32,049 bases of DNA from Spirochaeta sp. (GTDB lineage Bacteria > Spirochaetota > Spirochaetia > DSM-27196 > SLAA01). Of the stretch, positions 3,176 to 32,049 are shown one piece after another. Numbering within the stretch: position 1 is the stretch's first letter; each line of letters opens with the position of its first letter. The notes under the pieces were generated by a model. The model saw nothing but the letters and a program-made list of their open reading frames with translations, ran no database searches and was not told the DNA's origin. The stretch spans positions 1 to 32,049 of the forward strand of contig JAIVHN010000029.1 of the NCBI GenBank assembly GCA_020201015.1. Direction: 5' to 3'. The translations under genes and the position numbers were made by a program.

Positions 3176-4108
3176 TCAGCTCCAGACTGAGTTGAGTTCC
3201 TCTACGCCTTTCTGAACCGCGGCCACCGAGCCATCGAGCGCCGCCTTCTCCTCAAACGTGAGACTTAGTTCAATAATGCGTTCAATTCCCTCGGCACCAA
3301 GCACCACCGGGACTCCCAGAAAGACGTTTGAGTAGCCGTACTGGCCGTCAAGGAAGGCGCTGGCTGCAATGAGCCTTTTTTGGTCAAGAAGTATGGCCTC
3401 AACCATCTGCGCAACCGAGGCCCCCGGTGCATAAAAGGCGCTGCCCTGCTTGAGGTAACTCACTATCTCGCCGCCTCCTTTTCGGGTGCGGTCTACCAGT
3501 CGTTCGATAGTTTCGGCGTCCATGAGTTCAGCAAGGCCAAAACCGCCGACAGAAGTGTAGCGCGGCAGTGGCACCATGGTGTCACCGTGACCGCCTAGTA
3601 CCATTCCGGAGACGTTTTCCGGTAAGACATTCAACTCCTCGGCAATGAAGTACCGGAACCGGGTTGAGTCGAGGACTCCGGCCATGCCGATTACGCGGCG
3701 AGGGTCAAAGCCGGTGCCGCGCAACAGGGCCATAGCAATGACATCTAAGGGGTTGGCTACCGCTATAACTACCGAGTCCGGTGCGTAGGTGCGAATGGCC
3801 TCGGCTGCATCCTTGGCAATGCCTACATTGGTCTTAAGCAGGTCCATCCGGTCCATGCCGGGTTTTCGCGGAATACCAGCTGTATGCACTACCACGTCTG
3901 AGTCTTTAATGTCTGCGTAACTATTTGTTCCTGTAATTGTACAACGGAAGCCCTCTATTGGCCCCGCATGTTGAAAATCCAGCGCCTTGCTCTGTGGCAT
4001 GCCCTCTACGACATCGACCATAACTACATCTGCAATACCTGATTTTGCCAGATAGTACGCAGTAGTTGCGCCAACATTTCCGGCCCCAATGATTGAAATT
4101 TTTCGCAT
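3176..4108 (-). CDS. mdh: malate dehydrogenase (LDH-like MDH family)
   Basis: The ATG has an AGGAGG RBS upstream. The N-terminus is MRKISIIGAGNVGATTAY (Rossmann fold). The loop GIPRKPGMDRMDLL carries Arg at the MDH-specificity position. LDSTRFR and the GGHGDTMVPL catalytic His are present. Confidence 0.9.
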   Translation of the reverse strand: MRKISIIGAGNVGATTAYYLAKSGIADVVMVDVVEGMPQSKALDFQHAGPIEGFRCTITGTNSYADIKDSDVVVHTAGIPRKPGMDRMDLLKTNVGIAKDAAEAIRTYAPDSVVIAVANPLDVIAMALLRGTGFDPRRVIGMAGVLDSTRFRYFIAEELNVLPENVSGMVLGGHGDTMVPLPRYTSVGGFGLAELMDAETIERLVDRTRKGGGEIVSYLKQGSAFYAPGASVAQMVEAILLDQKRLIAASAFLDGQYGYSNVFLGVPVVLGAEGIERIIELSLTFEEKAALDGSVAAVQKGVEELNSVWS

Positions 4109-4131: not shown

Positions 4132-5040
4132 TTAGCTTGCGAGGGTGGCTGCAACACCCTGGGCACCGGCCTGTAGCAGCGCCTTCTCTTGTTCGTCGAG
4201 CTCCGGACTAAGCATTCTGACAACTCCTTGCGCGCCAATTATGGCTGGCAAACTGACCGCCGTATCCTTGAGTCCATAATGGCCGTTCAGCAGGGTTGAT
4301 ACCGGCAGTATCCGGCGTTGATCTCGTACCACCGCTTCGGCAAGCTCGGCCAAGGCATCGGCTGGCCCATAAAACGCACTGGAGCGCTGTGAGAGACCTA
4401 TGATTCGGTCCCCCGCCATCCGAAGTTGGGCTACAAGTTCTTCCCAGCGTTCAAGGCCAACCAACACATCAATTGGAACTCCAGCAACTCGTGTGTAGCG
4501 CCTTAGGGGAACCATGTGTTCGTCATGGCTACCAATTACAGCGGCGTTAATGTCCTCCGACAGCAGCCCGGTCTCCTCCGAAATGAGATATCGCAATCTA
4601 CTACGATCTAATCCGGTCCCGATTCCAATGACTCTTTCGGGAGGAAGTCCCGACTTTTGGGTAAAGAGTGCCGTGAGAGCGTCAACAGGTTCGGTTGCTA
4701 TAATCACAACCGCTTTGCTTCCTGAAAGCAGCTCGGCGTACTCTATAGCGATCTCTTTATTACGTGCAAACAAATCACTGCGTTGCTCTCCCGGGCGACG
4801 CACCTCACCGGCTGCAATAATGACAACTTTGCAGGCCTTTAGATCGTTTGGATCGTCTGTGCCTTGAATACTAACCCGATACCGGCGTACCGGTGCTGCT
4901 TCCATAAGATCCAGCGATTTCCCGGTGGAAAGTCCTTCACGATTATCGTACATAAGGACGTCGGCAACCGAGCGTTCCCCCAAAAAGAAGGCTGTGTTGG
5001 CTCCCAGGTTACCGCCGCCTACAATTCCAATGTGCGCCAT
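4132..5040 (-). CDS. Ldh/Mdh-family 2-hydroxyacid dehydrogenase paralogue, substrate unknown
   Basis: The ORF-track start at 5223 reads through intergenic repeat DNA (PRICPRICPGMCPG). The ATG at 5040, with GGAG about 10 nt upstream, gives MAHIGIVGGGNLGANTAFFL. The family loop is GEVRRPGEQRSDLF, and LDRSRLRY and GSHDEHMVPL are retained. Its stop lies 24 nt upstream of the mdh start. Confidence 0.75.
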   Translation of the reverse strand: MAHIGIVGGGNLGANTAFFLGERSVADVLMYDNREGLSTGKSLDLMEAAPVRRYRVSIQGTDDPNDLKACKVVIIAAGEVRRPGEQRSDLFARNKEIAIEYAELLSGSKAVVIIATEPVDALTALFTQKSGLPPERVIGIGTGLDRSRLRYLISEETGLLSEDINAAVIGSHDEHMVPLRRYTRVAGVPIDVLVGLERWEELVAQLRMAGDRIIGLSQRSSAFYGPADALAELAEAVVRDQRRILPVSTLLNGHYGLKDTAVSLPAIIGAQGVVRMLSPELDEQEKALLQAGAQGVAATLAS

Positions 5041-23024: not shown

Positions 23025-23864
23025 ATGCGGTATGAGTTCCACGATAGTTCGGCTCTTGAACTGGCCGAGTTGATACAAGGCGCGCTAGTGTCGGTTCAGC
23101 AGGATAGCGCTCACGTGTTGCAGTTCTATTCCCAGGAAACCAAGTCGGCGGTTGATGCCCGTACCACAAGTCTTTCCAAGCTGGAAAGTGTGCTGCATGC
23201 TTGCCTCTTAGGAATGATATTTGTAGGGCAGCACCTCACAGACCCGGAGTGGTGGGACCGGAGTATGGGAACTGCGCCCGACGACGAGCACCTTGAAGGT
23301 TACGTGAGCCGCTACACCGAGTTTACCAAGATTGGGCTTATTCAAGCTACCTTCTCCAGCATCGAGTCCAGCATTCGTTTGGTGTTGCGCAGCCTGTCAC
23401 CAGATACCTACAAACGTCTCAGGGTCGATTTTCGCCATATTTGCTACTATCTCATTGATGAGTTTATGCGCGACGAGCGGCAACACTATCGCGCCGTGAC
23501 CGACATTATGCGGCTTATTCGCAATACGGTGCATAACAACGGTGTGTTCTCGCCCAAGAGTGGACGGGATGTACGAATTTGGTACCGAGATCAAATTTAT
23601 GCCTTCGAAGCTGAAAAGGTGGTGAACTTTGCCGACTGGCAGCTCCTGTTGCAGATCATTGTGGATTTCAGCGAGTTTATTTCCAGGGTTATGACTCAGC
23701 CGGTTATCACTGAGCTTGAGCATATAGAGGATCCAATGATCTCGCAGCTTGTCAGCAATGGGCTGACCGAGGACTCGACCCCGGACGACTCCGCTGGCCA
23801 GACAACCGAGGACTCGACCCCGGACGACTCCGCTGGCGGTCCCTCCAACACCCCCACCTCCTGA
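23025..23864 (+). CDS. Hypothetical all-alpha protein with an R-x6-H / RNxxH motif and a duplicated acidic C-terminal tail
   Basis: 279-aa ORF starting 13 nt after the EIIA-PII stop. I recognised no family. MRLIRNTVHNNG resembles HEPN-type Rx4-6H motifs. The C-terminus has TEDSTPDDSAG twice. Confidence 0.6.
   Translation: MRYEFHDSSALELAELIQGALVSVQQDSAHVLQFYSQETKSAVDARTTSLSKLESVLHACLLGMIFVGQHLTDPEWWDRSMGTAPDDEHLEGYVSRYTEFTKIGLIQATFSSIESSIRLVLRSLSPDTYKRLRVDFRHICYYLIDEFMRDERQHYRAVTDIMRLIRNTVHNNGVFSPKSGRDVRIWYRDQIYAFEAEKVVNFADWQLLLQIIVDFSEFISRVMTQPVITELEHIEDPMISQLVSNGLTEDSTPDDSAGQTTEDSTPDDSAGGPSNTPTS
23766..23837 (+). repeat. Perfect 33-bp direct repeat, two copies with a 6-bp spacer, in the 3' end of the hypothetical gene
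   Basis: accgaggactcgaccccggacgactccgctggc occurs at 23766-23798 and again at 23805-23837. Confidence 0.95.
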
Positions 23865-23886: not shown

Positions 23887-24357
23887 CTACCGCGTGTGGG
23901 AGCGAAATCTCACATCCAGTTCGGTGCGAGTAAACTGGACAATGTGGTACGGCTGGGTGAGCGCTTGGGTGACGATATCTCCCGGCGCGGGACTTTGCTC
24001 CTGGTAATAAATTGTTAGGTGCTCGTCCTCGTGCTGCATGGCGGTAACCTCAATTGAGTAACCGCCGGACGGTTTCTCTCCGGCAAAAACCGCTGCTATC
24101 TGCATAGTTTCAAACTCAATGTCTGGAGTTTCGGGCACTGGGGATCGCCCCGAGTGGATCTCGCGCCAGAGGCGATCCAGGGCCGCTTCCGACTCAACGG
24201 TCACTTCTCGCTGAGTCAGCACGCCCGAGTAAGAACCGCGAGCCACCGTCTCGTAGGCTGGCCGCCTCTGAGAGCTCTCGCCGTGAGCCGAGCCGGAGGC
24301 GCAGGAAAGAAGTAGCCCCGTAATAAGCACCATCGACAAAGCAAAGCTGTTCTTCAT
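23887..24357 (-). CDS. PrcB-like (PrcB_C domain) lipoprotein
   Basis: The signal peptide plus lipobox is MKNSFALSMVLITGLLLSC. The C-terminal part, FAGEKPSGGYSIEV...YYQEQSPAPGDIVTQALTQPYHIVQF, matches the pattern I recall for the PrcB C-terminal domain. The ATG overlaps the upstream gene's stop (24354-24357). Confidence 0.65.
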   Translation of the reverse strand: MKNSFALSMVLITGLLLSCASGSAHGESSQRRPAYETVARGSYSGVLTQREVTVESEAALDRLWREIHSGRSPVPETPDIEFETMQIAAVFAGEKPSGGYSIEVTAMQHEDEHLTIYYQEQSPAPGDIVTQALTQPYHIVQFTRTELDVRFRSHTR

Positions 24358-26324
24358 TCCCTGTCTCCTTCTTCCTCTGCGGGTTCCTCGCTTGTAGCGG
24401 ACTCCTCATGAGTAGGGTCGCCCTCGCGCGTAAAGGGGATCAGCGACTCTCCTATCATGTAGTAGCGTCCAGATGCGTTCCATAGAGTAAAACCCGAGGC
24501 GCCACCTTCACGCGCACCCTGAAGCTGCCGCAGTAAATACTCGCGGTAGTAGGGCGTGGAGAACTGTAGCTCACTGCCAATGAGAAATGCCTGAACATAT
24601 GGCCGTATGAGAGCATCACCGGTAATCTCTGTTGAACGTGCACTGCCATCGCGGTAGAGGAACTCAGCCCAGTCCAGATACTCAAGCTCACCATAGAAAC
24701 TTCGTGGAAAGTGCGAGGGGTACAGCATTGGTGAGATCACATCTACGTAACGCGCAAGTTCCTCAACATCCTGCCCAAGATACACGGTGCGGTACCACGC
24801 ATTGAAACCGTAGACATCTATGCCAATGGGAAGCTCAAGCGCATTGCGGGCTTTGGAAAGAAAGCTGCTAAGAGCCGCTACTCGGTTGGTATTCTCCCCA
24901 CGATGGCGCGTAACAATATCTCGCGCTGCACCATCGGAAGGGAATCGGATGTAGTCGAACTGAACTTCATCAACGCCTGCATCTTGGATCTCACGGGCAA
25001 TCTGAACATTGTATTGATGGACGAAGTCTGAATAAGGATCTACCCACGACTCAATTTGCCGTTGTCCTTCATCGGTCTCGCGGTAGACACCCCAAGGGCG
25101 ATTGAGTCGTGCATCCCACAGTGCGTAGCGGTGGTTCTGGTACGCATAGAGCCGTGGATCTTGGAAAACCACGACCCGTGCAATTACGTAGATATCACGT
25201 TCATGAGCTGCGTCAATTAGCTCGGCTGCGTCGAAGAGCGGGCGAATAGCACCGGCTGCGCGTGCGGTTTCATTTGTACTGTGGTACCGGAGCATGCCAA
25301 AGTCGTCCTTGAAGTCGACAACGATGCTGTTCATTGCGTGCTCAACAACCAGGTCAAGGTACTCGGCAAGTTGCTGGCCTCGTGCACGATGCGCAGCGAT
25401 GTAGATTCCGTTGCGGTTGGCGGCGCGGCTGCGGCGACTAGCGGCCTGCTTGTCCGGGCCGTCGCTGGCAGCGTCTGCGCCGTCGGCGCGGCCGTCGTCT
25501 GTTTCGTTGTCTGTTTCGTTGTCGTCGGCATCTGCGCTGGCGGCGGCCGTGCGGTCTGAGCCGGTACTGGGCGCGGCCGTAGCCAAGCCATTCATAAACG
25601 ATACAAGTTCCGGGTCCGTCACCAACTTGACCTCTCCCGTGTTGCGACGGAAGCTATAGCTTCCTTCACCAAAAGCAAGTTCAAAGTACACGATATTATG
25701 ATCCGCTGGGTCGTACCCGAGCGCGGACACCTCTTCACGAAAGCCAGCACCCCGGTCCATAAAGGCAAAGGCCCGCCCCGAGCTTAGGCGCGTGAATGAA
25801 CGACCCCTGTCGGTACTTTCAAAGAAACCGTCGTACGAGGTGCCGACAAGGAAATGATCGGGATTGTGCGGCGAGATTGCTACCGAGGTGAACTTGACGC
25901 TGCTGTTGATTAACGGGCGGGTTTTAATGTTTAGCGCGTCCCAGGTTGTGCCAGCGTCGCGTGTAAGGTACATGTCGTCGGCACCAACCGCAGCAAAACG
26001 AAGAGGATCGTTTGGATCTTGAGCCAGCGCGGCAATTCGGACATATCCCTGTACCCCGGCTACGCCCGGCACACCGCTGCGGCCCTCGGCAGATTGCGAG
26101 ATGTCCTGTACTGTTGTCCATCCATCATGCGAGCGGAGCAGACGGCCCTCACTGCTTAAGCGAAGTTCGTAGCGACCAAGCTCAACTCCCACATCGGTGG
26201 TTGGTTGAATGTCGGACTGAGATGGGACCGCATGAAGAAGTCCAAACGGAAGCATAAGCCAGAGAAGAAGGTACAGAGCACGGTATGGGGCCCGTGCGGT
26301 CATGTTTGCGCAGTAGATGTTCAT
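24354..26324 (-). CDS. Secreted two-domain protein: BNR/propeller-like N-terminal region plus a DUF4015-type putative glycoside hydrolase
   Basis: The ATG at 26324 gives a signal-peptide-like RALYLLLWLMLPFGLLHA. BNR-like motifs TRDAGTTWDAL and STDRGRSF are present, followed by an acidic linker DADDNETDNETDD (12-bp tandem repeat at 25497-25524). The TIM-barrel-like part has NSIVVDFKDDFG, IARVVVFQDP, WVDPY and VQFDYIRFPSDG, as I recall for DUF4015. Confidence 0.75.
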   Translation of the reverse strand: MNIYCANMTARAPYRALYLLLWLMLPFGLLHAVPSQSDIQPTTDVGVELGRYELRLSSEGRLLRSHDGWTTVQDISQSAEGRSGVPGVAGVQGYVRIAALAQDPNDPLRFAAVGADDMYLTRDAGTTWDALNIKTRPLINSSVKFTSVAISPHNPDHFLVGTSYDGFFESTDRGRSFTRLSSGRAFAFMDRGAGFREEVSALGYDPADHNIVYFELAFGEGSYSFRRNTGEVKLVTDPELVSFMNGLATAAPSTGSDRTAAASADADDNETDNETDDGRADGADAASDGPDKQAASRRSRAANRNGIYIAAHRARGQQLAEYLDLVVEHAMNSIVVDFKDDFGMLRYHSTNETARAAGAIRPLFDAAELIDAAHERDIYVIARVVVFQDPRLYAYQNHRYALWDARLNRPWGVYRETDEGQRQIESWVDPYSDFVHQYNVQIAREIQDAGVDEVQFDYIRFPSDGAARDIVTRHRGENTNRVAALSSFLSKARNALELPIGIDVYGFNAWYRTVYLGQDVEELARYVDVISPMLYPSHFPRSFYGELEYLDWAEFLYRDGSARSTEITGDALIRPYVQAFLIGSELQFSTPYYREYLLRQLQGAREGGASGFTLWNASGRYYMIGESLIPFTREGDPTHEESATSEEPAEEEGDRE

Positions 26325-26413
26325 TATCACTATAGTGCCTCATTTTTTCTTGAGTATCCAGTCAAGATATGCCGATACTCTATATGGGGAGTAGCGCCCT
26401 AAGGAGGCTGGCA

Positions 26414-26911
26414 ATGCGCAATTTAGTAAACCTCATCCTCATGCTGAGTATGGTACTTGGTACCGCGGTGATACTCCCGGCTCAGCAGGAACTGAATAAC
26501 GAGAATGAACTCGACAACCAAAATGGACTCGAGTATGCGGGTACGTGGGAACGTGTGCAGGGCGAGCTTCGCTGGGAATGGAATATTGAAGGTGGAGCCT
26601 ACACCTTTACGTATCACCGCGAGGAAGCGTTTCGCATTGGGTCTCGCGGAGTTCTAGAACTTGATGAAGACGGCCTCCTCCAAGTGACGGCAGAGGAGAT
26701 CTCCGAGAACGGTGAGGACTGGGACGATATCGACATGGAGCCTGAGGACCGAACTCGTGCATATGGGCTTGAAGTTACCGAGACGCGCATGCGCATGTCA
26801 CAACCTGAGTATCCACAGTTTATGGTGGAGTACGGCCGCTATACGCCGGACGACGACAACGAAGATAACGACGAAAATAACAACGATAACGGTGCTGCAA
26901 ATATTGAGTAG
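26414..26911 (+). CDS. Hypothetical secreted acidic protein
   Basis: AAGGAGG at 26401-26407 precedes the ATG at 26414. The signal peptide is MRNLVNLILMLSMVLGTAVILPAQQ. The protein has a very acidic Asp/Asn/Glu-rich tail and no recognised family. Confidence 0.65.
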   Translation: MRNLVNLILMLSMVLGTAVILPAQQELNNENELDNQNGLEYAGTWERVQGELRWEWNIEGGAYTFTYHREEAFRIGSRGVLELDEDGLLQVTAEEISENGEDWDDIDMEPEDRTRAYGLEVTETRMRMSQPEYPQFMVEYGRYTPDDDNEDNDENNNDNGAANIE

Positions 26912-26932: not shown

Positions 26933-29677
26933 TTAGCCGCCAAGCTGTTTTAGTGCTGTCTCGGCGTGAAAACCCGTGTGTGATTCGGGATCAATAATGA
27001 GATACCCACGAGCGTAATCCCGTACGGGGAAGCGCAGGTCTAGCTTGAGTGCATCGGCTGCTTCGCGCGGCTTCTGCTTTCGTTCATACAGCAAAATAAT
27101 ATCTGCCAAAGCCTGCGAGTCTGAAATGATATAGTTATTCGTGGCGCCGGGTAAAAACACCGGCAGACCAGACTTGGTAGCAAGCAGTTCCACCATTTTA
27201 CGAAGTTGAAGATACGCGGTCATCATTCCGCTTCTTCCCAGTCTGTACGACAAGCCTTCAAGTAGATGAAATCCAAAAACAAAGTAAAAGCGCCGGATAT
27301 TTAGGCTCTTGATACCTGCCGAGGAAAAGGCAAGGTAGGCAACACCGACCACACGTTTGTTTTCGCTATCTACCAGACGGAGAACCTGGAATCCGGGGCG
27401 AAGTATGATGTCCGGTTTTCCGGAATACACCGGCGCGCCCATTTCACCGTACATGGCGTCGATACAGGACTTTGATGCACGTACGATCATTCCTTGGCTT
27501 GTGGGTTGGTGAGCGCGGGTTGCGCGGGTCAGTGCGGATTGAAGGTCCAGGAGCCGGGCCGCCTCGGTCTCAAGGCCGCCGTACTGGAATAGACGGCGCA
27601 GAGCAGCGTCAAACGAGGCCCACCCCGGTGTGCTCCGGTGGGTATCGAAAAGCAGCAACAGGTTTGTGAGCTCCAACGGTAGGGGGAACAGTGCCTGTGA
27701 ATGCACTCGGGCCTCGACTCGAACACAGTCAAGATAGTTGATGAGTAACGCCAGCTGCCTAAGAGTTGGACGGTGTGGGGCCACATCACTCTGGAGATAC
27801 TCGGCGCGCGCGGCAATATCCTTGCGGGTTCCATAGCGTGCTAAGACCACCTCGGCGCCAAAAACGGTTTCGTATGCCTCGGTCAGGAGGGGCAGGTCGA
27901 TTTTTTTACGTAGGGCTGCGTTGGTTTGGGCGTCGACAATCTCGGGAAAAGCGTCGGAAAACTGATGTACCGGAAGTGTAAACTCCATCTGCGTTCGCAG
28001 GGCCTGCTGCTCGCTGGCGCTGCCGTAACGTTCGTACAACTCGGTCACAGTGAACGCGGTAACCTGCTGGTCCGGACGGCCACGAGCCGTACCTGGAATA
28101 CCGGCGTAGAAACACACCTCGCGTGCGGCACTGCCCAACGCGTCTAACTCGCGGCAACGCCCTACCTTCCAGCCAGCGTCCTTGCCCGCTGCCAACTCGG
28201 CTATCAACTCATCTATGAGGCCAGCCTGTTGCGGATGCTGACGTTGGTACGCCTTAAGAAGCGGGTCGAAATCGGCGCCGATATGACCCGCCTCGGGTGG
28301 CCCATCCGGTAGAGCTACACCAAGCTGCTCGCTCAGCTTGATCCGGCGCTGAGCGTTGACCCTTTGTTCGGGATCTCGAAATAGCGGTGCTATCTTTCTA
28401 TGTTCGTACTCGGAGTGGAAGCCGCCATGATTTTGAATATCATAGATGTACTGACGTCGCAGGTCTTCATCAATAGAGGTGAACCTGCGCGCATGTCGCC
28501 GTAGAGCATCCATGCCGCCGGTATCGGACACCGTCGGGACGAGCTCCGCAAGCCCTTCTGCGCAGTCGGGGTCGATGACCGAACGCAGGAGCGATGCAAA
28601 ATACCCCGAAAGGTAGATGCCTGCATTTGTTCGAATGAGGGCGCGGATAATAGCCAAGTAGGCTTTGATCTCACGAACCAAGGAAAAGATGGTAAGGCCC
28701 TTGTCGGCCCGAGTCTGCATGTTGGCCTCAAACTCGGTGTACAGGCTAACCGAGAAGATATCCTCCGCCTTCTTGAGATCTTCATGAGAAAAAGCTGCGG
28801 CAAACTCAGGCTCAAGTTGGCCTGCGGCGCGAACAATAGGAACCAGTTGTATAAGATCAACCTTGCCCGAGAGGCGGTATAGGAAAGGAAACACGTTAAG
28901 CCGTAGAAACAAGACAAATACCGGATGGTTCAGGCGCAGCGACTGCCACCCTGCCTTGTATTGTTCAAGAAGGCTTTCGTCCTCCAGTACGCCTACCGAG
29001 AAGCGTGCAAGCGGTTTGCCTACATACTTCACCAGAACCACCTCGGTCAGGGTTCGTGAGTTTGGTAGAAACTCTTCATGGAACGGTTTCTTGCCGCGCA
29101 TAGAGATAAGGAGTTCGGCTATGCGTTGCAGCGCCCAGAAATGGCGTTCCCGCCAGCGACGCCAGTCGGCGTCCAGTCCCATGCGGGGCATCATAACGTA
29201 GCGTACAAAGGCCGCGGGCGGGACTCCTGCGCGGGCAAGTTCCAGCAAGAGGTACATAAACTGGCGCATGACCTTGGGGCTGCCATGAAAGTTTCCCAGG
29301 TTGTCGGTAATACCGCGGAGTTCGGCTATAGGGTTGAGCCAGTGGACCGTGCCGTGCTGGCAGCAGGCTTCAAAAAGCTTTGCAATTCCCACGCGCTCAG
29401 CAGGTTTTCGCATTTCGTCTAGCTCGGCGGCAGACAAAAACGGCATTCTCTGCGACGGTGCGAGTTGAGACTCTCGGGATAGCCGGCGCAGCTCCTTTGC
29501 ACGCGGGGTGAGCACGGTTTTTCGGCTGCCGACGGAGTTCTCGGTGCTCTCGGGGCCAGCGTTCTGTTCGGCACTGGAGTCCGGGCTCTCGAAGAACTCC
29601 TCGTCGCCATAGATCGCGGCATCTTTATCCCGGTTGCTTGGGTCTTTCCAATTGATGTCTGCTTCTGCTTGCGCCAT
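26933..29677 (-). CDS. Large (914-aa) hypothetical cytoplasmic protein, no recognised domain
   Basis: Uninterrupted 2.7-kb ORF with coding-like composition. It has a disordered acidic N-terminus and is then mostly helical. I could identify no TM segments, P-loop or nuclease motif. It is divergent from the uvrA-like gene. Confidence 0.75.
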   Translation of the reverse strand: MAQAEADINWKDPSNRDKDAAIYGDEEFFESPDSSAEQNAGPESTENSVGSRKTVLTPRAKELRRLSRESQLAPSQRMPFLSAAELDEMRKPAERVGIAKLFEACCQHGTVHWLNPIAELRGITDNLGNFHGSPKVMRQFMYLLLELARAGVPPAAFVRYVMMPRMGLDADWRRWRERHFWALQRIAELLISMRGKKPFHEEFLPNSRTLTEVVLVKYVGKPLARFSVGVLEDESLLEQYKAGWQSLRLNHPVFVLFLRLNVFPFLYRLSGKVDLIQLVPIVRAAGQLEPEFAAAFSHEDLKKAEDIFSVSLYTEFEANMQTRADKGLTIFSLVREIKAYLAIIRALIRTNAGIYLSGYFASLLRSVIDPDCAEGLAELVPTVSDTGGMDALRRHARRFTSIDEDLRRQYIYDIQNHGGFHSEYEHRKIAPLFRDPEQRVNAQRRIKLSEQLGVALPDGPPEAGHIGADFDPLLKAYQRQHPQQAGLIDELIAELAAGKDAGWKVGRCRELDALGSAAREVCFYAGIPGTARGRPDQQVTAFTVTELYERYGSASEQQALRTQMEFTLPVHQFSDAFPEIVDAQTNAALRKKIDLPLLTEAYETVFGAEVVLARYGTRKDIAARAEYLQSDVAPHRPTLRQLALLINYLDCVRVEARVHSQALFPLPLELTNLLLLFDTHRSTPGWASFDAALRRLFQYGGLETEAARLLDLQSALTRATRAHQPTSQGMIVRASKSCIDAMYGEMGAPVYSGKPDIILRPGFQVLRLVDSENKRVVGVAYLAFSSAGIKSLNIRRFYFVFGFHLLEGLSYRLGRSGMMTAYLQLRKMVELLATKSGLPVFLPGATNNYIISDSQALADIILLYERKQKPREAADALKLDLRFPVRDYARGYLIIDPESHTGFHAETALKQLGG

Positions 29678-29760: not shown

Positions 29761-32049
29761 ATGAGCGTGGATATCAACAATCTAAGAGTACGCAACGCCA
29801 GGCAGAATAATTTAAAGAACATCGATATCGATATTCCTCTTGGGGGTCTCACTGTACTTACCGGTCGCAGTGGCTCGGGCAAGTCTTCACTTGCGTTCGA
29901 CACAATATTTGCCGAGGGACAGCGGCGATACGTTGAGACCTTCTCTGCCTATACGCGTCAGTTCCTTGACCGCATGGACAAACCCGCGGTTGACTCGGTG
30001 GAAGGAATTCTGCCTGCAGTCGCTATAGACCAGACCAACCCGGTACGTACTTCACGTTCGACGGTGGGCACCATGACCGAGGTACTCGATCACCTGAAGC
30101 TGCTCTATGCGCGAGCCGGACGCATTCACTGTGCCTCCTGCGCTCGGCCGGTAACACGTGATGATCCGGAATCTATCTACCGACGGCTTGAGACGGAGTT
30201 TTCCGGGGAGTCCAGACAGCTGGAGCAGCGCGAGCCCCTGCGCTTTGTGGTAGTTTTCCATGTTCAGCTTCCCGAGGGGTATCCGGAGCAGGATGCACGG
30301 GATGCACTTGCAGCTCGGGGCTACCGGCGGGTGCAGACGGTAGCCCCGAGCTGCAAGTGCATCCCGTGCATCCTGCTCCGGATACCCCTCGGGATGGAGA
30401 CCTGGCGCTACTCACGCGAGCTGCACTGTGCTGATTGCAATATTGCGTATCGTGATGCCAAGCCAAACCTGTTTTCCTTTAACTCGCCCATTGGGGCCTG
30501 TCCGGTATGTCGAGGGTTCGGTCGTGTTATTGAGATTGACTATAATCTTGTCATTCCCGACAAGGGGAAAAGCCTCAGCGAAGGCGCAGTCAAGGCATGG
30601 GAGACACCGAGTTACCGTGAGTGCCGTGACGAGCTGCTGAGTTTTGCTGCCGAGAAGGGCGTCCGGGTTGATGTTCCATGGTGCGAGCTGAGTGAGGACG
30701 AGCGGCACTGGGTCATAGAGGGAGATGGTGAGTGGGAGGACGGTGTCTGGTACGGCATACGGCGCTTCTTTGCCTGGCTTGAGAGCAAGAGCTACAAGAT
30801 GCACATTCGTGTTCTGCTGTCCCGCTACCGGGCCTACAACGTTTGTCCAGAATGCAATGGTTCACGACTTGTTCCGGAGGCCCTCTTGTGGCGACTTCCT
30901 GTACCGTCGTATGCAGATGAACGCGGAATAGCAATTCACGAGCTACTCAGCTTGCCCATAGGGCGGGCCGCGGAGTTGATTGATGAGTTTAGGAACGTCG
31001 GCGCGGCCGGGAACGAAGCAGCGGCCGGGAACGAAGCAGCGGCCGGGAGCGGGGCGACGCACGACGACGAAGCAGTCCGCACGGTGCTGGACGAGACCCT
31101 CACCCGTCTGCGCTACCTTGTTGAGGTTGGCCTTGCTTACCTCACACTTGACCGGCAGTCGCGCACACTCAGCGGGGGCGAGGTGCAGCGGATCAACCTC
31201 ACAACCGTGCTGGGGACATCCTTAGTCAACACGCTTTTCGTGCTGGATGAGCCGAGTATTGGGTTACACAGTCGCGACATTGCGCGGCTCATCGGCATAC
31301 TTACCCGGCTTCGTGATGCGGGGAATACGCTCTTGGTGGTTGAGCATGAGCCAGAAGTGATCCTTGCCGCGGATCACATCATTGAGTTAGGGCCTGAGGC
31401 GGGTGAGCATGGCGGAGAGCTGGTTTTTGCTGGAACACCTGCCGCGCTACTTGAGGACGAGCACTCGCCCACGGGGCAGGCCTTAAGGGCGCGGATGTCA
31501 GGCAGTGCTGTCCACGCAGTTGGCATGCGCGTGCCGGGTCAGGTTCGCGGTGCGACAAACGCACACGCTCGTAGCTCGGCTTCGGTGCAGATATCGGCTC
31601 CGGTGCAGATCACCGGTGCGGCCGAACATAATCTCAAAGATATCGATGTAGATATTCCAATGGCGCAGTTGGTTTGCGTGACCGGCGTCAGCGGCTCCGG
31701 GAAGTCTACCTTGGTTGAGGAGGTGCTGTACCGCGCTGGCGCGGTGTTTTTTGGTCGCGGCGGGGTGTCGCCGGGCGTACACCGCAGTGTATCCGGGTTT
31801 GAGCAGTTCTCGGATATCGTGCTGGTGGACCAGTCGGCGCTGGGCAAGACTACGCGCTCTAATCCTGCTAGCTACGTTGGCGCCTTTGACGCCATCCGCA
31901 AGCTCTTCATGGCAACTCCTGAGGCGCGCGAGCGCGGTTACACTGCTGGCACCTTTAGTTTCAACTCAGGCAACGGGCGCTGTCCCCGCTGTGGCGGCAA
32001 CGGGTTTGAACACATTGAGATGCAGTTTCTCAGCGATGTGTATCTGACC
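29761..32049 (+). CDS. uvrA: UvrA-family ABC ATPase (excinuclease subunit A-like), 3' end outside window; internal region atypical
   Basis: My own translation is open for all 763 codons to the window edge; the ORF track omits it for lack of a stop. N-terminal block: NLKNIDIDIPLGGLTVLTGRSGSGKSSLAFDTIFAEGQRRYVETFSAYTRQFL and AIDQ. Zinc modules CASC...CADC...CPVCRGFG and CPECNGSRL are present, with signature LSGGEVQRI and VLDEPSIGLH. The second ATPase module has GVSGSGKSTL and FSFNSGNGRCPRCGGNG. Confidence 0.9.
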   Translation, partial: MSVDINNLRVRNARQNNLKNIDIDIPLGGLTVLTGRSGSGKSSLAFDTIFAEGQRRYVETFSAYTRQFLDRMDKPAVDSVEGILPAVAIDQTNPVRTSRSTVGTMTEVLDHLKLLYARAGRIHCASCARPVTRDDPESIYRRLETEFSGESRQLEQREPLRFVVVFHVQLPEGYPEQDARDALAARGYRRVQTVAPSCKCIPCILLRIPLGMETWRYSRELHCADCNIAYRDAKPNLFSFNSPIGACPVCRGFGRVIEIDYNLVIPDKGKSLSEGAVKAWETPSYRECRDELLSFAAEKGVRVDVPWCELSEDERHWVIEGDGEWEDGVWYGIRRFFAWLESKSYKMHIRVLLSRYRAYNVCPECNGSRLVPEALLWRLPVPSYADERGIAIHELLSLPIGRAAELIDEFRNVGAAGNEAAAGNEAAAGSGATHDDEAVRTVLDETLTRLRYLVEVGLAYLTLDRQSRTLSGGEVQRINLTTVLGTSLVNTLFVLDEPSIGLHSRDIARLIGILTRLRDAGNTLLVVEHEPEVILAADHIIELGPEAGEHGGELVFAGTPAALLEDEHSPTGQALRARMSGSAVHAVGMRVPGQVRGATNAHARSSASVQISAPVQITGAAEHNLKDIDVDIPMAQLVCVTGVSGSGKSTLVEEVLYRAGAVFFGRGGVSPGVHRSVSGFEQFSDIVLVDQSALGKTTRSNPASYVGAFDAIRKLFMATPEARERGYTAGTFSFNSGNGRCPRCGGNGFEHIEMQFLSDVYLT
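30270..30394. repeat. Perfect palindrome inside the uvrA-like ORF: 57-bp arms (30270-30326 and 30338-30394) around an 11-nt loop
   Basis: I checked base by base. Every position i in 30270-30326 is complementary to position 60664-i. The first mismatches are 30327/30337 and 30269/30395. Confidence 0.97.
31003..31048 (+). repeat. 18-bp in-frame tandem repeat (about 2.5 copies) in the uvrA-like gene
   Basis: gcggccgggaacgaagca occurs at 31003-31020 and 31021-31038, then gcggccggga at 31039-31048. It encodes AAGNEA AAGNEA AAG. Confidence 0.95.

Follow-up and report, generated by a model that had tools for sequence, protein, structure and literature searches.

How does a conserved bacterial gene come to carry a long, perfect palindrome in its coding sequence while its reading frame stays open? 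The question is raised by a UvrA-like gene near the end of the 32,049 nucleotides (nt) of contig JAIVHN010000029.1 (Spirochaeta sp., assembly GCA_020201015.1, positions 1 to 32,049 of the forward strand), the whole of which is referred to here as the window. Within this gene, positions 30270-30326 and 30338-30394 are complementary at 57/57 nt with zero mismatches and are separated by the 11-nt spacer GCGGGTGCAGA, giving a palindrome with a total length of 125 bp. It is a one-off product of polymerase fold-back, either a real mutation or a laboratory artefact, and on balance we lean somewhat towards regarding it as the scar of one fold-back template switch in a living cell. Events of its kind are already known; this one is unusually large and represents no new genetic element, system or mechanism.

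The symmetry ends abruptly at the outer ends of both arms, where the flanking sequences (CAGCT on the left and TGGAG on the right) form no target-site duplication. Across the 32-kb window, this is the sole strong inverted repeat, the second best extending over 35 nt at 74%. When folded as single-stranded DNA, the palindrome region reaches -86.7 kcal/mol, compared with -27.1 +/- 3.2 kcal/mol for 200 shuffles (z = -18.8, with 0/200 as good), and the chance expectation for a perfect 57-nt inverted repeat with a short spacer in 32 kb is, by our own arithmetic, about 1e-28. A chance origin of the palindrome is thus excluded.

The open reading frame (ORF) that holds the palindrome starts at 29761 and continues uninterrupted across both arms to the window end at 32049 (+ strand), where 763 codons of the 5′ part of the gene have been read and the gene runs on beyond. 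In this frame, arm 1 encodes the peptide LPEGYPEQDARDALAARGYR and arm 2 the peptide (V)APSCKCIPCILLRIPLG. The predicted protein matches the Pfam families UvrA_DNA-bind and ABC_tran, and its homologues (1100-1330+ amino acids (aa), mostly partial) are annotated as excinuclease ABC subunit UvrA. From the lengths of these homologues we take the gene to be of the long, tandem-duplicated UvrA type; a literature search for UvrA class nomenclature gave no usable result. As a partial protein of this long type, the translation does not reach the score of a canonical UvrA equivalog, with 663.5 bits for NF001503 (cut-off 1147) and 654.2 bits for TIGR00630 (cut-off 729.8), and its best-aligned stretch with the NCBIfam UvrA models begins at aa 213, directly after the palindrome.

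The ancestral state of the locus is read from the two closest orthologous loci, L001 (PXEI01000038.1, assembly GCA_003564775.1, an uncultured bacterium) and L002 (SLAA01000147.1, an uncultured Spirochaetales metagenome-assembled genome (MAG)), which show about 79-84% aa identity and the same gene neighbourhood. Both carry the divergent 914-aa neighbour of the UvrA-like gene at 85-92% identity, and because this neighbour is shared, the loci are orthologous to the window. Over the 98 nt that precede arm 2, identity to L001 and L002 is 81-83%, and colinearity with both extends through arm 1 (30270-30326, +; native coding sequence for aa 170-189, PEGYPEQDARDALAARGYR), the spacer (30327-30337, +; native sequence encoding R V Q T, identical in L001 and matching at 9/11 positions in L002) and at least the CGGT with which arm 2 begins. 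Arm 2 (30338-30394, +), the exact reverse complement of arm 1, is therefore native in its first 4 nt, and its native resemblance reaches up to about 14 nt; the rest has no counterpart in either orthologue. Junction 2 lies at 30394-30395, where the copy ends and native sequence (TGGAGACCTGGCGCTAC...) resumes, as judged from orthologue colinearity from TGGAG onwards; colinearity is back at 30395 (TGGAGACC...), and identity runs at 82-88% over the following 150 nt. Between CGGT and TGGAG, each orthologue has exactly 150 nt while the window has 57 nt, a net change of -93 nt, or -31 codons, that keeps the frame. The palindrome is present in neither orthologue, and the ancestral locus accordingly had none, as seen from outgroups that are only about 80% identical, with the immediate ancestor unseen. 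The missing 150-nt segment has not moved elsewhere in the window, where tblastn and blastn found nothing beyond chance.

These comparisons bear out much of what an initial annotation had proposed from the letters alone. The exact complementarity of the two 57-nt arms was confirmed when the symmetry was recomputed, and translation returned an ORF open through both arms with the peptides first given. The orthologues, in turn, agree that arm 1 is native, that arm 2 is an accidental antisense reading and that native sequence resumes just before RYSRELHCADC.

What the gene has lost is equally visible in the protein alignment that the initial annotation had suggested making between RGYRRVQ and ELHCADC, in which 50 conserved residues are replaced in the window. 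Flanked by RGY.R.. and R(F/Y)S..LHC.DC, a block of about 50 residues is present in 9/9 and then in 40/40 aligned homologues, with the consensus ..LEVxQDRxxxxxxxRxRxxExLEAALKxGxGRVxV.. and with D204, R215 and G227 invariant (in the numbering of the homologue P0001). In the window, the arm-2 peptide occupies its place, so that 50 residues give way to 19 unrelated ones. The lost residues correspond to P0001 193-242 and align with about 196-236 (the ..VVDRL.. part) of Thermotoga maritima UvrA, 3PIH. The region between the Cys pairs of zinc (Zn) module 1 is, from UvrA structures, what we take to be the UvrB-binding domain, and by the sequence alignment the segment lost is the C-terminal 50 residues, the core of the equivalent of this domain in the first UvrA module. 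The claim that the palindrome replaces the rest of signature domain I together with the UvrB-binding region must accordingly be narrowed, since only the C-terminal 50 residues of the latter are lost, while signature domain I itself and the N-terminal half of the UvrB-binding-domain equivalent (about residues 128-192) are kept.

Both Cys pairs that frame the damaged domain survive. The first (C124 and C127; 30130-30141, +) lies on its N-terminal side, C127 being invariant and C124 nearly so (at least 90%) in a 41-sequence alignment, and the second (C223 and C226; 30427-30438, +) is intact 33 nt downstream of the palindrome and invariant across the alignments. Between them, the window protein holds no intact UvrB-binding domain. 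An AlphaFold2 (AF2) model of P0001 gives residues 160-250 a predicted local distance difference test (pLDDT) score of 91-95 and builds the lost segment as two strands (198-207 and 230-236) and a helix (210-226); in the model of the window protein, the replacement peptide (residues 190-211) scores 49-58. Some natural UvrA homologues are without the UvrB-binding domain and Zn module 1 and still fold and function (PMC10192343), and the window protein, if made, would resemble Deinococcus radiodurans UvrA2, Ecm16 and DrrC in being a UvrA-type ATPase without a functional UvrB-binding domain. In those proteins, however, domain and Zn module 1 are cleanly lacking in old, conserved lineages (PMC10192343), whereas the window retains half the domain and both Cys pairs and has 19 nonsense residues inserted.

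An inverted duplication plus deletion produced by a template switch, one of the options listed at the outset, is the best-supported anatomy. As after a template switch, the new arm is the reverse complement of adjacent sequence, at 57/57 nt, and junction 1 (30323-30341) contains a short inverted repeat, ACCG(11 nt)CGGT, that is a possible site of fold-back priming. ACC...GGT is kept in all three loci, and L002 also has GCCAGGG...CCCTGGC there. The order of steps, the polymerase involved and the setting in vivo are what we infer from this anatomy. Left-to-right strand synthesis, during replication or the repair of a gap or double-strand break, would have left its template just past ...GCAGACGGT; the 3′ end CGGT would then have found its partner ACCG at a distance of 11 nt upstream, be it on the nascent strand or, at the fork, on the complementary one; with arm 1 as template, the polymerase would have run backwards for about 53 nt, which yields 30270-30322 in exact reverse complement; and the new end would have paired again with the original template after a skip of 150 nt, at TGGAGACC. 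The outcome would be the exchange of 150 native nt (50 codons) for 57 nt (19 nonsense codons), with the frame kept and the remainder of the protein still translatable. The switch point falls in the range from 30337 to about 30351, and because all 57 positions pair perfectly, it lies within the first few nt of arm 2. The arms carry no mismatch, and for that reason the event is very recent.

Two more specific accounts of the deletion failed. Had the polymerase returned through a 5-nt homology, AGCTG, which is found both in the reverse-complemented left flank of arm 1 and in the orthologues' ...AGCTGGAG, the sequence would be GGGAAGCTGGAG, and the window has GGGATGGAG. In L001, a 10-nt direct repeat, TGCAGACGGT, occurs at about 3461-3474, the equivalent of the spacer and junction 1, and at about 3604-3613, the second copy standing 17 nt before the equivalent of junction 2, with the copies 139 nt apart and out of frame. 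As an explanation of the missing segment, this flanking repeat was rejected, being found in L001 only and out of frame.

For each element of this mechanism there is support in the literature. In quasipalindrome template switching in Escherichia coli, the nascent strand templates itself and then returns (PMC7202029). Quasipalindrome mutations of this sort (the Ripley model, the E. coli thyA hotspot and the lacZ quasipalindrome reporters; PMC7202029) share with the event proposed for the window a self or opposite-strand template at a short imperfect inverted repeat, a return to the original template, a repeat that becomes perfect, and a bacterial setting in coding sequence. The classical events, however, perfect a quasipalindrome of about 18 bp with an in-register return and leave a few base changes or small indels, whereas the window has about 53 nt of new stem and a 150-nt skip. 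A second comparison is the four-switch-point model of Loytynoja and co-workers (PMC8794818, PMC7954356), under which a single template switch can make perfect stems, with patterns of up to 59 bp (PMC8794818). Here too one event copies the reverse complement of adjacent sequence, can yield a perfect hairpin and is detected against an ancestral or outgroup state, but the described cases were inferred mostly in ribosomal RNA or primate genomes, where a few bp separate source from target and the length hardly changes, as opposed to a bacterial protein-coding gene shortened by 93 nt. Finally, breaks can undergo snap-back at inverted repeats 5-9 bp long whose spacers measure 3-12 bp (PMC7999016, PMC10622511). 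In yeast fold-back at double-strand breaks, a 3′ tail folds back at an inverted repeat (4-9 bp, spacer 3-12 nt) and is then elongated, and deletion and inverted copy arise at the same site, as in the window (PMC10622511, PMC7999016). The usual products in yeast are hairpin-capped ends and large palindromic duplications, while in the window synthesis would have ended after 57 nt and rejoined the other side, so for a bacterial locus the parallel holds by analogy. Overall, the event fits the broader four-point or snap-back class and not the narrow class of quasipalindrome correction.

Several observations weigh against a template switch in a living cell. The pre-existing inverted repeat is short (3-4 bp conserved, and 7 bp in L002 only) and could be due to chance. 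The return is out of register and skips 150 nt, unlike classical quasipalindrome mutations, and at the return site, with GA|TGGAG in the window against GC|TGGAG in the orthologues, the available comparison gives no demonstrable microhomology. No second assembly of the organism was found, the closest DNA anywhere being about 80% identical (dS, the synonymous divergence, 0.8-1.5): protein-guided scans gave a best relative of 79% (L002) in genome_contigs and of at most 56% in metagenome_contigs, and exact-protein look-ups of three neighbours (914, 180 and 156 aa) in a 153-billion-gene index found none. Nor does the open frame lend much help. Arm 2 is open in two of its three frames, 57% of the 60-nt windows on the antisense strand of the UvrA-like gene are free of stops, and the chance of an in-frame return is 1/3; because an open frame is thus expected by chance at a combined probability of about 0.2, the survival of the ORF is weak evidence only.

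A further objection comes from selection. The flanking parts of the gene show a ratio of nonsynonymous to synonymous divergence (dN/dS) of 0.02-0.05 against both relatives, indicating strong purifying selection, and invariant residues are among those lost, so that one would not expect the consensus of so constrained a gene to be an allele that destroys a domain. In the L001 orthologue, an in-frame TAG at about 4884-4886 (GAG in the window) follows directly after the third Walker A motif (..GKSTLV*EVLY..) and splits the gene into same-frame ORFs of 663 and 1240 aa; it may reflect nonsense mutation, sequencing error or read-through. Because the orthologue carries this TAG, disabling lesions in the UvrA-like gene may be tolerated in the clade, and together with the existence of functional UvrA homologues that lack the UvrB-binding domain, it partly offsets the argument from selection.

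The competing explanation that survives best keeps the fold-back and moves it to the test tube: phi29 polymerase in multiple displacement amplification (MDA), for example, or a polymerase used in library preparation or the polymerase chain reaction, would have made the same structure in vitro, and the chimera would have come to dominate the local consensus while the real gene is intact. Of the chimeras formed in MDA, 85% are inverted joins with intervening deletions, mostly intramolecular and primed at 2-21 nt of complementarity (PMC1855051). The window does contain an inverted join with an intervening deletion, the CGGT/ACCG of junction 1 (at least 4 nt) matches priming of this type, and hairpin self-priming during library preparation is documented to create interrupted palindromes (PMC3946424), so that both kinds of artefact share with the window an inverted join with a deletion, priming at a few bases and perfect arms. 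An artefact is also blind to selection, which fits the loss of an invariant, strongly constrained segment; perfect arms suit an event of zero age; and all relatives are uncultured MAGs, a setting in which amplification is sometimes used.

The difficulty for an origin in vitro is the second junction. Each MDA chimera analysed was a joining of two sequences, at about one per 22 kb of reads (PMC1855051), and library hairpin artefacts end at the 5′ end of the fragment, after which adapter follows and not downstream genomic sequence (PMC3946424). In place of a single junction with inverted sequence up to the end of the molecule, the window has an inverted segment of 57 nt and then a second junction that returns to the same strand, which would need two switches 57 nt apart. 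In cells, template switching by its nature gives two junctions at this distance and brings the strand back to its template; in vitro, the same outcome takes a double accident. Furthermore, a contig of at least 32 kb implies coverage that should normally outvote a rare chimeric molecule, and no further inverted chimera is seen in the 32-kb window. We therefore take an artefact of amplification or library preparation seriously, while considering it less likely than not.

Far less probable is that the palindrome arose purely by computation, through a hairpin path in a de Bruijn graph or the end-to-end merging of two contigs, the first of which ends in a hairpin tip. At 57 nt, the arms come close to the common k-mer sizes of 55 and 59, which are typical assembler defaults, and the palindrome is located where 150 nt are missing. 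Yet the two junctions (spacer to arm 2, and GGGA|TGGAG) are novel and, as we understand de Bruijn graphs, would require novel k-mers in the reads, those of the window being ...GTGCAGACGGTAGCCCCGAGCTGCAAG... and ...CCCCTCGGGATGGAGACCTGG... across the two junctions. In addition, there are no Ns, the frame is kept, and junction 1 falls at a biochemically sensible priming site.

The initial annotation had also raised the possibility that the palindrome is a functional cruciform or RNA hairpin, and a selected structure of this kind, whether as a cruciform, as a palindromic protein-binding site or as a translation-regulating hairpin in the mRNA, would agree with the extreme stability of the hairpin. 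It is nevertheless present in neither close orthologue, where the corresponding segments reach only -7 to -9 kcal/mol and show no covariation; no Rfam family was matched in the window; the palindrome replaces invariant residues; and its perfect arms suggest recent origin, not maintained function. The proposal was rejected on these grounds as very unlikely. There is next to no likelihood that the palindrome is a mobile element inserted in frame, as had likewise been suggested by analogy with Rickettsia palindromic elements and as might be extended to repetitive extragenic palindromic (REP) or miniature inverted-repeat transposable element (MITE)-like sequences, for despite its palindromic form and open ORF, arm 1 is coding DNA with orthologous counterparts in L001 and L002 (about 82% identity), the locus falls short of the orthologues by 93 nt where an insertion would lengthen it, there is a single copy within the window and no target-site duplication, the arm-1 pattern GGGTATCCGGARCAGGAYGCACG had 0 matches in viral_contigs and metagenome_contigs, and the palindrome had no match in plasmid or phage collections.

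With these set aside, we consider it an evenly balanced matter whether the fold-back template switch is a real mutation that arose in the cell and was captured very soon after its origin, one in which a single switch, in an uncultured, spirochaete-like bacterium from the wild, built a perfect 57-bp hairpin and a 19-residue de novo peptide in a repair gene under strong constraint and removed the UvrB-docking core with the frame kept. If so, it would be among the largest natural template-switch events documented in bacteria and would indicate that a single polymerase template switch can create both a long perfect palindrome and a novel peptide in a conserved bacterial gene, and that a 125-bp palindrome can persist at least briefly in a wild genome. 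The gene would then represent a UvrA paralogue newly deprived of its UvrB-docking domain and would stand as a natural intermediate between UvrA paralogues that bind UvrB and those that do without it. If it is an artefact, the locus would stand as a warning that double-junction fold-back chimeras can persist in long contigs that are otherwise clean and mimic in-frame variants.

The palindrome is not the only recent rearrangement in the gene. Two in-frame tandem duplications of 18 nt lie further downstream, one at 31003-31048 (2.6 copies at 100% identity, with the peptide AAGNEA-AAGNEA-AAG) and the other at 31576-31610 (1.9 copies at 94%, SASVQI-SAPVQI); both are in linker regions and neither is present in P0001 or L001. 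Counting the palindrome, the UvrA-like gene holds three recent changes of slippage or template-switch type within 1.4 kb.

The remaining window is ordinary chromosomal DNA, with genes for a DUF4015 glycosyl hydrolase, PrcB_C, PTS EIIA, a Na+/H+ exchanger, an AMP-binding enzyme and MscS. The 914-aa neighbour used to establish orthology is encoded at 26933-29677 (-), divergently transcribed from the UvrA-like gene, and has no Pfam match; it is 85% identical in L001 and 92% identical in L002, syntenic in both, and is thus a conserved protein without an assigned function that is more conserved than its UvrA-like neighbour. Perfect direct repeats of 33 nt (23766-23798 and 23805-23837, 39 nt from start to start) are found near the 3′ end of an ORF at 23025-23864 that is also without a Pfam match. 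Lastly, two 12-nt tandem repeats, CGTTGTCTGTTT x2.6 at 25493-25527 and ACAACGAAAATA x2.6 at 26851-26885, form an imperfect 35-nt inverted pair 1.3 kb apart; one is in the ORF at 24354-26330 (-) and the other in the ORF at 26369-26911 (+), and they are probably low-complexity coding repeats.

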